DNA of 22,745 nt from a virus (taxonomy: Duplodnaviria > Heunggongvirae > Uroviricota > Caudoviricetes), in IMG/VR virus record IMGVR_UViG_2778261182_000009, positions 1-22,745 of that record, one strand, 5' to 3'. Under the pieces are notes generated by a model, which saw only the letters and a program-made list of their open reading frames with translations, searched no databases and had not been told where the DNA came from. Position numbers and translations under genes: made by a program. Positions 1 to 20,970 of the stretch are shown here, piece after piece (position 1 is the first letter of the stretch; every line of letters starts with the position of its first letter).

Positions 1-12
1 GTTGGTGGTGAT

Positions 13-195
13 ATGAGCCGAAAACACTGGACACACAGAATGCCGCGAACGGCGGTGAAATGGGCACTGGTAGCGATACTGGTGCCTTTTTTATTGGTGG
101 GGTGCGTCAGCCTGGATAAGGCACGCCAGCTTTTCGATACGGCTTCTCAGGTCTGCGAAATTGTTGACGGTGTTCGGCAGTGTCTGCAGAACTGA
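13..195 (+). CDS. Small secreted lipoprotein, putative o-spanin (Rz1-like) at the end of the lysis cassette
   Basis: 60 aa ORF with a hydrophobic signal segment ending in an L-V-G-C lipobox (KWALVAILVPFLLVGC) and two further Cys in the short mature part. GGTGGTG precedes the ATG at 13. The other two frames hit stop codons at 9-11 and 14-16, as expected if an upstream i-spanin gene ends in overlap. The position just upstream of cos matches the lambda Rz/Rz1 location. The upstream partner lies outside the window, so the call is tentative. Confidence 0.45.
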   Translation: MSRKHWTHRMPRTAVKWALVAILVPFLLVGCVSLDKARQLFDTASQVCEIVDGVRQCLQN

Positions 196-369
196 TCGCC
201 CGTAAGAGCAGAATATTTTGCTGAAAAATGAAGGGTGCTCCAGCGTCCGGAAAGCATGAAATTCTGTGTTTGCGGTCATTCAATAAAATAAATTCTTTCT
301 TTCGCCGCGAATACTCAAATGTTGATCAGCGCCTGCTGCGGTGACGGGCTTCGATATCAGGAGACGATG

Positions 370-666
370 ATGGAAAAAACAGAAAACAAACCGATTGTAA
401 TTGGTGCTGATGCTGCTCCGTTTAAGTTTGAGTTGTCTCAACTGGTGGAGATGCGCATCAGTGATGAATGGGGTGAGGTTAAAGCCCGCGCGCAGTATGC
501 GGATGGCGAAAACCAGTACTTGATCCACTACAAAGCTGCTGATGGTCGTGCCACAACGGAGTGGTTTGGTGAGTCAATGCTGGAAGCAACAGAAGATGAT
601 CGTCATCCTGGTTGTCCGGTATTTGCAGGTATGAAATTACCGGAAGGCGCAGTCGTTACTGAGTAA
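370..666 (+). CDS. Hypothetical acidic protein (moron-like ORF between lysis cassette and cos)
   Basis: ORF 319..666 in the six-frame track; AGGAG at 359-363 favours the ATG at 367 or 370 (MMEKTENKP...). I recognise no homolog from sequence. It sits where lambda carries bor and other accessory genes. Confidence 0.45.
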   Translation: MEKTENKPIVIGADAAPFKFELSQLVEMRISDEWGEVKARAQYADGENQYLIHYKAADGRATTEWFGESMLEATEDDRHPGCPVFAGMKLPEGAVVTE

Positions 667-969: not shown

Positions 970-1518
970 GTGAAGGTTAACAAAAAGAAACTGGCGGAGA
1001 TTTTTGAGTGCGATGTCAGAACAATCACTGGCTGGCAAAGTCAGGGGCTGAGAGTTTTGTCGGGGGGAGGCAAAGGTATCGAGGCCATGTTCAATACTGC
1101 AGAAGCCATTGAGTGGTATGCGCAGCGGGAAAAAGATATCGAAAACGAAAAGCTCCGCAAGGAACTGGAAGATTTGCGTGCGGCTGCAGAATCAGATTTA
1201 CAACCCGGCACCATTGACTATGAACGCTACCGGCTCACAAAAGCACAGGCTGACGCACAGGAGCTGAAAAATGCCCGCGAAGAAGGGCTGGTGCTGGAAA
1301 CGGAATTGTTTACCTTCATTCTGCAACGTGTGGCTCAGGAGATTTCGGGAATACTTGTACGTGTGCCGCTGACATTACAGCGTAAATATCCGGATATTTC
1401 ACCGTCACACCTTGATGTGGTGAAAACTGAAATCGCAAAAGCCTCCAATGTTGCAGCTAAAGCCGGTGAAAACGTGGGCAGGTGGATTGATGATTTCAGA
1501 CGCACAGAAGGCAGCTAA
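970..1518 (+). CDS. nu1: Terminase small subunit (lambda Nu1 family)
   Basis: GTG start at 970 with GAGGA upstream. The translation ([36 protein letters not shown]...[14 protein letters not shown]...[28 protein letters not shown]) aligns along its length with lambda gpNu1 (MEVNKKQLADIFGASIRTIQNWQEQGMPVLRGGGKG...). Confidence 0.9.
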
Positions 1519-19337: not shown

Positions 19338-20970
19338 CCTTAAAGCGAATATCAGGATCGGCGGCACGATAGATCCGTCGTGGAAAAAATCGGTTGATGG
19401 ACTGAAGCACGGATTATCAGGGGCAACACAGGAGGTGGCTCGCCTGACACGCCAGCAGGATGTACTGAAACGAAAAATTCAGGCTGGTGCACTGGCTGGA
19501 CAGGATATTACTGAACTGCGAAAGCAGTATGAAAAGCTGGGCAAAAAAATTCATGATGCCACCGGAGAGCAGGACAAATTTAACCGTAAGCTGGCTCGTG
19601 CTGAACGTCTGGAACGCTGGAAAGGGCGGGCCGGGACGGTCCTTAAAACCGGTTTTGGGCTTTCTGTTGGTTCGGGGTTGATGCTGGCAGCGGGCACTAC
19701 CGCTGTGCTTAACCGGAATACGGAAACGGCAGAGCGGGCAGGGATAGCCCGCAGTTATGGTGTGGATTATGAAACCTATGCGGCATGGGATTCACTTGCC
19801 CGACTGATGGGGCTGAATGGTGAAAACATCGGTGATCTGTTTGAGGAGTACCGGAACAAGGTTTTTGACGATGATAATGGTGCCACGGATAAAGGGGCCA
19901 TTCAGGAGGTGTTTGGTGCGCTGGGGCTGAAAGCCGGGGTGATGGCCGGAAAAAGCAACCAGGAGCAGGTCGAATTTTTATTTGATCGCTTACTGCAGGT
20001 AGAGAATGAACAGGTGGCAGCCGGGATGGCAGATGCGTTGTTTGGTGGTGAGGCCAATAAAATTCTGACCTGGATGCGTCTGTCAGGAAAAACTTACCGG
20101 GAGCTTATCAGTGAGCAGAAACGCTATAACCTGGTGACAAAGGCAGGGGCAGATGGCGCAGTTCAGGGGCATATGGCGCTGTCAAATCTCAGTAATGTTC
20201 TGAGTTCGTCCATTGATGAAATCAGCGGGCAACTGGGTAAGGAGCTGGCACCACATATTCAACAGGTGACGGATGACCTTGCGGCCTGGTTTAAGTATGG
20301 TGGACTGGAAAAAATCCGGGCATTTATCCGTGATGATGCCCTGCCGGCGCTGATCGACATGGCAGCATGGATGTGGAAATTCGGAAAAGTTCTGGCTGGA
20401 ATCACACAAAAAGCCATTGAGTGGGGGTTAGCGGATGATCCACGAGAGGACCGGCGAGAGGTGCTGGAATATCTGGCAAAAATGGGGTCGCCGGAGCTGG
20501 CGAGAGCGGTGGCGCAGAAAAACGGTCAGGGTGAATGGTTTGATGAACTTATCAGGCAAAATCCGGACCTGACGAAACAGGTTGTACAGGCCTATAAAGA
20601 CACCCGCGGTTATTTCCCCTGGAATCATGACGATAAAAAGTTTGATGCATTTCTCGACCCTTTGCTGGGACCGAAGGAAGAACCTGATTTTAAGGCGATA
20701 AAAGAGAAATCCCGCACCTACATTGACGGACTTCCTGCGGCAGGTCAGGGACAGGAAAATCCTGATCGCCTTTCAGCCCTCCAGTATACACCCGGCAGTA
20801 TCAGCAAGGTGGAAGTAAAACCCACATATCAGATACGGGCCGAATTTAACATCACCCAGAAATCTGGCGAGGATGCCGGACAACTGGCAGACAGGGTGAC
20901 GAAAAATCTGGGGGATATTCATTTTGGTCAGCGTTCCCGTATGACTGATGGTTATGAATCCTGGGGGTGA
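19318..20970 (+). CDS. T: Tail tape measure protein (P2 gpT position)
   Basis: 550 aa, predicted largely alpha-helical (coiled-coil-like, with charged heptad-like runs), and a Gly/hydrophobic segment (GFGLSVGSGLMLAAGTTAVL). It lies after the E/E' chaperone genes and before U, as for P2 gpT. Confidence 0.82.
   Translation: MATVGDNLKANIRIGGTIDPSWKKSVDGLKHGLSGATQEVARLTRQQDVLKRKIQAGALAGQDITELRKQYEKLGKKIHDATGEQDKFNRKLARAERLERWKGRAGTVLKTGFGLSVGSGLMLAAGTTAVLNRNTETAERAGIARSYGVDYETYAAWDSLARLMGLNGENIGDLFEEYRNKVFDDDNGATDKGAIQEVFGALGLKAGVMAGKSNQEQVEFLFDRLLQVENEQVAAGMADALFGGEANKILTWMRLSGKTYRELISEQKRYNLVTKAGADGAVQGHMALSNLSNVLSSSIDEISGQLGKELAPHIQQVTDDLAAWFKYGGLEKIRAFIRDDALPALIDMAAWMWKFGKVLAGITQKAIEWGLADDPREDRREVLEYLAKMGSPELARAVAQKNGQGEWFDELIRQNPDLTKQVVQAYKDTRGYFPWNHDDKKFDAFLDPLLGPKEEPDFKAIKEKSRTYIDGLPAAGQGQENPDRLSALQYTPGSISKVEVKPTYQIRAEFNITQKSGEDAGQLADRVTKNLGDIHFGQRSRMTDGYESWG

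Follow-up and report, generated by a model that had tools for sequence, protein, structure and literature searches.

We describe here the 5' end of a viral DNA stretch of 22,745 nucleotides (nt) (Caudoviricetes; IMG/VR record IMGVR_UViG_2778261182_000009, positions 1 to 22,745), hereafter referred to as the window, in which two small open reading frames (ORFs) lie between lysis genes and lambda-type terminase genes (Nu1 at 970), where cos is expected, as an earlier note on this DNA had already placed them. The first ORF encodes a lipoprotein precursor of 60 residues and the second an acidic protein of 98 or 99 residues. We lean, with some reserve, towards a reading in which the lipoprotein gene closes the lysis cassette and its product takes the place of Rz/Rz1 in the outer-membrane step of lysis, without a dedicated i-spanin, the second gene being a separate passenger of the late operon. 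The locus is organised as follows.

1-11, plus strand: 3' end of a small membrane-peptide ORF (..VRWW; TGG TGG TGA, stop codon at 9-11), from the reading frame
13-195, plus strand: lipoprotein precursor gene, 60 residues, stop codon at 193-195 (ORF, PHROG 7528)
62-95, plus strand: terminator-like element within the lipoprotein ORF, codons 17-28 (terminator scan, synonymous constraint)
196-366, plus strand: AT-richer intergenic spacer of 171 nt, with a Shine-Dalgarno sequence AGGAG at 359-363 (GC content, conservation)
367-666, plus strand: acidic ORF of 99 residues, or 98 from the ATG at 370 (ORF, PHROG 1935)
671-709, no strand: GC-rich inverted repeat directly after the stop codon of the 99-residue ORF (repeat search)
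720-969: repeat-rich gap of 250 nt where cos is presumed (direct and inverted repeats)
970-1518, plus strand: terminase small subunit Nu1 (PF07471, E 3.4e-85), followed by the large terminase subunit

The closest named relative is the Stx2e phage phiP27, with 94.8% identity across positions 12-718 of the window. phiP27 and Escherichia coli prophages that share 92-96% identity with the window have a common arrangement: two holin genes, an endolysin gene (M15 peptidase or GH108), variable small ORFs, the lipoprotein gene, the 98-residue ORF and then the packaging genes. About 250 related loci were gathered; the viral contig sets consist mostly of near-identical E. coli prophages, so that the counts given below are not counts of independent events, and a scan of genome contigs for the lipoprotein gave only three loci. 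One of the related sequences, PP818812.1 (20079-20332), is named Actinobacillus phage vB_Apl-pPE4 and carries an unannotated lipoprotein region of E. coli type with 94.5% nucleotide identity; its host assignment looks doubtful.

The product of the ORF at 13-195 is MSRKHWTHRMPRTAVKWALVAILVPFLLVGCVSLDKARQLFDTASQVCEIVDGVRQCLQN. Residues 1-30 (nt 13-102) form a signal peptide with a basic n-region, unusually long and conserved (M-x-R-K-H-W-T-H-R-x-P-R), and a 14-residue hydrophobic core; the lipobox is L-V-G-C, with Cys31 at nt 103-105 and Val-Ser at +2/+3. The lipobox was judged by hand with a PROSITE PS51257-type rule (K/R in residues 1-7, uncharged h-region, LVGC), which bears out the 60-residue lipoprotein with a canonical lipobox proposed in the earlier note. 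The mature lipopeptide has 30 residues (nt 103-192), is slightly anionic (isoelectric point (pI) 4.68) and amphipathic, with a hydrophobic moment (muH) of 0.53 over 18 residues that 87 of 2000 shuffled sequences attain. AlphaFold2 (AF2) models the lipoprotein as one long helix with pLDDT 68, informative for helicity alone. An invariant Cys48 and a nearly invariant Cys57 flank a D-G turn in the mature part, and the most conserved parts of the protein are the signal peptide and its long n-region.

Homologues of the lipoprotein form 157 clusters (90% identity) in Escherichia, Salmonella, Citrobacter, Cronobacter and Yersinia, and PHROG 7528, to which no function is assigned, matches it end to end (1-60/60, E 3.6e-37). 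Pairwise ratios of nonsynonymous to synonymous substitution (dN/dS) against cross-genus homologues range from 0.15 to 0.35, indicating purifying selection; for the 98-residue ORF the ratio is at most about 0.2, with saturated synonymous divergence (dS). Among about 109 distinct related sequences, variation sits mainly at third codon positions of the plus-strand frames. Both ORFs are real genes under purifying selection, and the minus-strand ORFs at 91-279 and 280-528 were rejected since codon-position variation tracks the plus-strand frames. Scans of both proteins against Pfam (E<=1), NCBIfam and PADLOC returned no family, the sole NCBIfam match, QseG at E 0.12, being judged meaningless. A twin-arginine translocation (Tat) signal was rejected as there is no twin-arginine motif, as was a signal-arrest-release (SAR) domain, the h-region being too hydrophobic.

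The position of the gene with respect to the endolysin is nearly constant. An M15 or GH108 endolysin lies upstream on the same strand in 113 of the 114 dereplicated loci with 2 kb of upstream sequence, and in 40 of these 114 the lipoprotein starts at most 60 nt past the endolysin stop. The two genes overlap at an ATGA in Yersinia kristensenii, whose cassette comprises two holin-family genes and a GH108 endolysin, while in Lelliottia nimipressuralis and one further cassette a single S-like holin, the endolysin and the lipoprotein follow each other without any intervening ORF. Holins and endolysins vary among these cassettes, and the position of the lipoprotein is constant. Elsewhere, one or two small membrane peptides (28-65 residues, with a C-terminal transmembrane domain (TMD) and often a ..RWW end) are inserted between endolysin and lipoprotein, for example at 3838-4011 in L002, 4731-5011 in L004 and 4641-4996 in L010. 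The ..RWW family corresponds to PHROG 4493 (function unassigned) and is a variable accessory gene missing from many lipoprotein loci. The window contains only the 3' end of such an ORF, the TGA of which ends 1 nt ahead of the lipoprotein ATG at 13; full forms of this upstream ORF have 57 residues in phiSTEC1575-Stx2k and 28 or 37 residues in E. coli M8 and bR_120. The lipoprotein gene is the last gene of a lysis cassette made of one or more holins, an endolysin, optional small membrane peptides and the lipoprotein itself. The fixed linkage to the endolysin and the 1-nt stop-start spacing argue for co-expression with the late lysis genes rather than for an independent lysogenic-conversion unit, and we infer that the lipoprotein is expressed late together with them.

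The slot held by the lipoprotein is occupied in some related cassettes by Rz/Rz1. With the same M15 endolysin as anchor, the best 80 IMG/VR loci were considered, 74 of which have at least 1.3 kb of downstream sequence. The full lipoprotein without Rz was found in 65 of these 74, Rz with embedded Rz1 and no lipoprotein in 4, neither in 5 (all representing one arrangement) and both in none. In L194, Rz/Rz1 follows a small peptide ending in ..IRWW, that is in the very slot that the lipoprotein holds after ..VRWW in the window. In L152, L162 and L121, Rz/Rz1 is present and the lipoprotein gene is 5'-truncated, surviving from codon 16, one copy being frameshifted as well; all these truncated copies stand behind an inserted minus-strand gene. 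This gene (3027-3644 in L152, between Rz/Rz1 and the truncated lipoprotein) encodes 205 residues with an RHGER motif, which we take to be histidine-phosphatase-like, and looks like a moron. Such an either/or relationship with Rz/Rz1 is what non-orthologous displacement at a single functional step would be expected to produce, though the close relatedness of the loci keeps the number of independent events small.

The lipoprotein has the signal-peptidase-II signal with lipobox, free of an Asp retention residue at +2, that is expected of an o-spanin, and the expected location in the lysis cassette 3' of the endolysin (the 113 loci above). The remaining hallmark, a cognate i-spanin embedding, overlapping or adjoining the o-spanin gene, was not found in the 151 neighbourhoods searched. 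The search, made in gene neighbourhoods and not in whole genomes, ran from the endolysin gene up to 1.2 kb beyond the lipoprotein and asked for ORFs in which an N-terminal TMD is followed by a soluble tail of 50 residues or more. The only i-spanin-like ORFs retrieved were genuine Rz genes at two loci, found only alongside truncated lipoprotein copies; the other returns were secreted fimbrial-like morons and read-through variants. Annotation by PGAP of the lysis regions of two complete E. coli prophages includes no spanin either. The absence of an i-spanin-like ORF nearby indicates that the lipoprotein is not a canonical two-component o-spanin. From the o-spanin proposal of the earlier note, the genuine lipoprotein and the fixed post-endolysin position stand, in line with a published call for phiP27 (PMC6139136), while the i-spanin partner is lacking nearby; the upstream absence that the note itself had named as telling against this proposal largely holds in these neighbourhoods.

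A published survey (Kongari 2018, PMC6139136) lists phiP27 among "separated" two-component spanins, with a singleton o-spanin of 51 residues at 20706-20861, the periplasmic domain of which has 30 residues and is 83% helical, and a proposed i-spanin of 64 residues at 20348-20542; together their periplasmic parts amount to 62 residues, the lowest total of the survey (PMC6139136). This o-spanin is the homologue of the present lipoprotein, read from Met10. The proposed i-spanin, on the plus strand with a TTG start, is antisense to an unannotated 90-residue minus-strand ORF (phiP27 20332-20604; 3655-3927 in L001) that gives a full-length match to PHROG 36812 (E 5e-20), whereas the 64-residue ORF has no match, and the segment is missing from most lipoprotein loci. 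The phiP27 i-spanin annotation looks spurious. A literature search on L32/L33 of phiP27 returned nothing relevant. The homologue of phiP27 was already known as a putative o-spanin; the present evidence adds the lack of a partner nearby and the alternation with Rz/Rz1.

The codons of the signal peptide also harbour a nucleotide-level feature. A hairpin spanning 62-87, with 11 bp and the loop GCGA, leads into TTTTTTATT (a U-run) and was flagged by the terminator scan; the scan score of the 62-95 element alone is not above chance. The predicted RNA hairpin has a free energy of -16 to -26 kcal/mol in eight homologues from seven genera, and is nearly base-for-base identical across the seven genera, whereas the overall dS of the homologues relative to the window amounts to 0.3-1.5. 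Codons 18-27 show a synonymous diversity of 0.043, about four-fold below the 0.177 of the remaining codons (Mann-Whitney p=0.002); 23 of 20000 randomly drawn codon sets reach so low a level. Three rare codons, ATA, GTA and TTA, are fixed. In the alignment, 99.7% of the cells are paired; six of the eleven pairs vary, on one side only and with pairing kept, and no double compensatory change occurs in the stem, which therefore provides no proof by covariation. Altogether these patterns suggest that the element at 62-95 is under constraint beyond protein coding, and the embedded hairpin would account for much of the invariance seen in the signal peptide. Should the element act as a transcription terminator, expression of the lipoprotein and of the genes beyond it would depend on Q-modified polymerase; Q-dependent read-through of this kind would fit late expression and argue against expression in the lysogen by read-through. 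This unexpected element would represent a compact case of dual coding and RNA-structure constraint.

In the mechanism that we propose, the lipoprotein would be transcribed with the late genes, exported, lipid-modified at Cys31 and cleaved by signal peptidase II, with the inner leaflet of the outer membrane as its predicted destination since the +2 residue is Val and not Asp. The 30-residue amphipathic lipopeptide with its two cysteines would then supply the outer-membrane lysis step that is carried out by Rz/Rz1 in sister phages. As 30 residues are too short to bridge the periplasm, a tethered membrane-destabilising lipopeptide is favoured as its most likely mode of action, the outer membrane failing once the endolysin has removed the cell wall, and in function the protein could resemble a one-part disruptor or the lipoproteins of colicin release more than a complex spanning the periplasm.

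Several known systems offer points of comparison. Like the Rz1-type o-spanins of lambda, the lipoprotein has a precursor of about 60 residues, a lipobox, outer-membrane sorting residues and periplasmic cysteines, and is encoded by the last gene of the cassette. Unlike them, it is without any embedding, overlapping or adjoining i-spanin, and its mature domain of 30 residues is predicted to be helical and lacks the proline-rich stretch of lambda Rz1; it differs from spanins generally in showing no similarity to any spanin PHROG or Pfam family. The unimolecular spanins (u-spanins) of T1 gp11 type are similarly encoded by a single gene of the lysis cassette, carry an N-terminal lipobox and perform the outer-membrane step alone, as proposed here for the lipoprotein, but possess a C-terminal TMD and a long beta-rich periplasmic domain, whereas the lipoprotein ends in a polar ..CLQN. 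Membership in this class was rejected because the only hydrophobic segment spans residues 17-30 and there is no C-terminal TMD.

The size and lipobox agree with the architecture of the colicin lysis lipoproteins (PF02402, Lysis_col), including the bacteriocin release protein (BRP), and of entericidin B, with precursors of about 45-60 residues, an LxGC-type lipobox and mature parts of about 28-33 residues. The colicin-release lipoproteins permeabilise the outer membrane without a partner, and the BRP of pCloDF13 has a functional stable signal peptide. Membership in Lysis_col was rejected, as no Pfam family matched at E<=1, and the lipoprotein gene is a late phage gene, unlike the lysis genes of SOS-regulated colicin operons. 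Another comparison is with the disruptin gp28 of phiKT, likewise a small partner-less protein of the lysis cassette proposed to break the outer membrane, in a phage that has no spanins; it is cationic, resembles antimicrobial peptides and has no lipobox, whereas the present protein bears a lipobox and has a pI of 4.68. Spanins cannot be recognised in about 15% of the phages that infect Gram-negative hosts, and the phiKT disruptin is the only alternative described (bioRxiv 10.1101/515445).

That the 30-residue lipopeptide is by itself the outer-membrane lysis factor of widespread enterobacterial temperate phages, including the Stx2e phage P27, and is encoded by a gene with a conserved internal terminator, is a stronger proposition which we put forward tentatively and regard as doubtful. 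It would represent a third solution beside spanins and the phiKT disruptin, in which a lethal product and the downstream late genes would be expressed only by Q-antiterminated polymerase. A minimal lipopeptide in the spanin slot, exchanged with Rz/Rz1 in otherwise identical cassettes, belongs to a family common in prophages of E. coli, Salmonella, Citrobacter, Cronobacter and Yersinia, several of the carriers being toxin-converting. If acting alone, it would amount to a new, very small module for breaking the outer membrane, of use in engineered lysis and in annotating "spanin-less" phages, and would also correct the published spanin assignment of phiP27.

Several points weigh against a partner-less lysis factor. 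With its 30 residues, the mature peptide is too short to reach across the periplasm, and its slightly anionic character contrasts with the cationic phiKT disruptin. To our knowledge there is no phage precedent for a lipoprotein-only outer-membrane lysis factor. The either/or pattern may go back to no more than a handful of recombinations in closely related E. coli prophages, and five of the M15 loci carry neither the lipoprotein nor Rz/Rz1. The small membrane peptides frequent just upstream of the lipoprotein could be its partners, and a 222-residue single-TMD protein whose long tail is helical, encoded upstream of the holin in L007-L008, could be an unconventional inner-membrane partner. The i-spanin search was moreover confined to gene neighbourhoods. 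For the 98-residue gene, the point against a role in lysis or packaging is that its contexts, detailed below, are not uniform.

A first alternative is a canonical two-component spanin with an i-spanin that escaped recognition: a very short one, one of the small upstream peptides or one encoded elsewhere in the genome. The pair catalogued by Kongari et al. in phiP27, with its 64-residue i-spanin, the frequent small transmembrane peptides upstream and the single-TMD helical protein before the holin in L007 speak for it. We consider it rather improbable: the phiP27 i-spanin ORF is the unmatched one antisense to the PHROG 36812 ORF, in a region that most loci lack, the C-terminal TMDs of the upstream small peptides leave only 2-4 residues on the far side of the membrane and these peptides are missing in at least 40 loci, and the 151 neighbourhoods returned no i-spanin-like ORF beyond the Rz genes mentioned above.

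A lysogenic-conversion or superinfection-exclusion lipoprotein in the manner of Bor, Cor or Llp, its adjacency to the lysis genes being incidental, appears more improbable still, even though morons are known to occupy the gap between lysis and terminase genes, small lipoproteins of the outer membrane typically serve as exclusion factors and the family accompanies toxin-converting phages (Stx2e, Stx2k, LT-II-like). The gene invariably points the same way as the endolysin gene and in many cases is coupled to or overlaps it, it is exchanged for Rz/Rz1 and not for other morons, it has no likeness to Pfam, NCBIfam or annotated PHROG families, no promoter was detected upstream or in the region, and the conserved terminator-like hairpin in the ORF would stop transcription that is not antiterminated. 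The moron or lysogenic-conversion role suggested in the earlier note finds no support in this tight linkage to the lysis genes (1-nt gap in the window, ATGA overlap in Yersinia, at most 60 nt in 40 loci), and the region is probably the tail of a lysis cassette with one passenger gene, not demonstrably a lysogenic-conversion island. Very improbable, finally, is a regulator of lysis timing, in which the lipoprotein or its stable conserved signal peptide would modulate holin triggering or the endolysin in phages devoid of spanins: the signal peptide and long n-region are indeed the best conserved parts and the five related cassettes with neither lipoprotein nor Rz indicate that spanin-less variants exist, but the embedded hairpin explains part of this conservation at the nucleotide level, the alternation with Rz/Rz1 points to the same step as theirs, and similarity to known antiholins could not be shown.

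As a separate observation, toxin genes repeatedly accompany the lysis cassette of these phages: Stx2e, Stx2k, an LT-II-like A/B pair in Yersinia kristensenii and a pertussis-S1-like ADP-ribosyltransferase in Cronobacter (L006 6988-8140, L010 2489-3217, L001 825-2060 and L002 1-619).

The spacer between the two genes is AT-richer, as the earlier note had stated, with a GC content of 0.38-0.43 against 0.51-0.56 in the flanks over the 171 nt of 196-366, and its 3' half (281-366) is conserved to the level of first and second codon positions of coding sequence. The independent promoter that the note had suggested there was not recovered. A consensus scan of 1-1100 at its threshold gave no sigma-70-like promoter on the plus strand, and a manual -10/-35 search of 196-366 yielded weak candidates only, such as TAAAAT at 285-290 without a -35 element. 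Likewise, Rfam gave no match at E<=1 in 1-1000, and RNA folding of 190-375 gave no structure signal (z 0.04). An unconventional promoter or leader in the spacer is possible.

The second gene encodes 99 residues from its first ATG (367) and 98 from the ATG at 370, which is the start assigned by PGAP in relatives; the acidic ORF of about 98 residues announced in the earlier note is therefore real and acidic (pI 4.62; 19 D+E against 10 K+R), the length being 99 from the first ATG. The note had recognised no homolog, and this part does not stand: PHROG 1935 (function unassigned) matches residues 2-99 (E 1.4e-60), 109 clusters of homologues were retrieved at E<=1e-3, all unannotated, and a profile of the core domain retrieved 723 representative clusters at E<=1e-3, many of them stand-alone proteins of about 60 residues and none with a Pfam domain. 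None of these homologues has a known function. AF2 predicts, from a 30-sequence alignment (mean pLDDT 85.7), a six-stranded SH3-like barrel with its core at residues ~19-73, and the sequence has a conserved C-terminal tail, HPGCPV..LPEGA. No signal peptide or TMD was seen in the sequence or the predicted model.

The best match of the model in the PDB by Foldseek is HspQ (5ycq, E 3.6e-3, TM 0.55/0.70), followed by KOW, PWWP, SH3 and Tudor domains, and its matches in BFVD are all uncharacterised small phage proteins. Both HspQ/YccV and the 98-residue protein are acidic, have about 100 residues and fold into a five- to six-stranded SH3-like barrel, and the alignment of the HspQ profile falls in the expected register; the HPGCPV..LPEGA tail marks a difference, being specific to the enterobacterial phage subfamily. 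Membership in the HspQ/YccV-like family (PF08755) was rejected, with no Pfam match and hhalign probabilities of 1.1% (A1) and 19.6% (A5), which are not significant, and a sequence search of the PDB with the profile of the 98-residue family returned no match at E<=10.

The genomic contexts of the family are diverse, most often next to lysis or terminase genes, with members recurring at the borders of lysis cassettes. Close relatives of the gene stand 170-180 nt behind the lipoprotein; about a third of the lipoprotein loci (52 of 168) are without it. Other members follow the LysC o-spanin in Edwardsiella, Rz in Salmonella and, in a P2-like Enterobacter prophage, a DUF2514 gene that is itself preceded by an M15 endolysin and is taken to be an Rz-like i-spanin. 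The gene lies just before the holin in E. roggenkampii, within the lysis region in another E. coli prophage, after the gene of the small terminase subunit (gpM-type, PF05944) in two P2-like elements, and among early genes in Burkholderia phage Bcep176; it overlaps or abuts the preceding late gene in the P2-like and Edwardsiella prophages. With two occurrences after a gpM-type terminase gene and one in the early region of Bcep176, a role in lysis or packaging is weakly supported by these contexts.

We read the 98-residue protein as a mobile, co-oriented late-operon passenger with a predicted binding-type fold; our best guess is that it would be a cytoplasmic, non-essential protein that binds proteins or nucleic acids and so modulates late functions, either lysis or packaging. 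Taken alone it is an ordinary "conserved hypothetical", and it adds a large unannotated SH3-like family to the recurrent late-operon passengers. Some members of this family (P0290, P0306, P0230 and P0234) occur in tandem duplication or fused to repeated C-terminal modules, and such fusions might serve as functional leads.

An independent moron active in the lysogen, transcribed from a promoter in 196-366 and with the inverted repeat at 671-709 as terminator, is an unlikely alternative for this gene; its product could for example modulate a host protease in the manner of HspQ, bind DNA or mimic it. The AT-rich spacer with its strongly conserved 3' half, the hairpin directly 3' of the stop codon at a module boundary, the mobility of the gene among unrelated contexts including an early region, and the shared size, acidity and best PDB fold match with HspQ would all be consistent with it. 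Against these stand the absence of a sigma-70-like site at the scan threshold, the lack of a T-run after the hairpin at 671-709, the overlapping or abutting of the preceding late gene in the P2-like and Edwardsiella prophages, and the weakness of the similarity to HspQ (hhalign 1-20%, no YccV match in Pfam, no sequence match in the PDB).

Downstream of the passenger gene, the inverted repeat at 671-709 (18 nt, without a T-run) is conserved behind the ORF in relatives, and related loci lose homology to one another at ~700-719; the repeat thus marks the 3' edge of a shared module of lipoprotein, spacer and ORF, i.e. a recombination or module boundary. A search with the lambda cosN 12-mer found no site near Nu1 and did not locate cos. 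Upstream of Nu1, the interval 820-990 is dense in direct and inverted repeats, e.g. AAAAAAAGAAAGGATCT at 884-900 and AGATCCTTTCTTCTTTT at 936-952, which are presumably terminase or integration host factor (IHF) binding sites of cosB.

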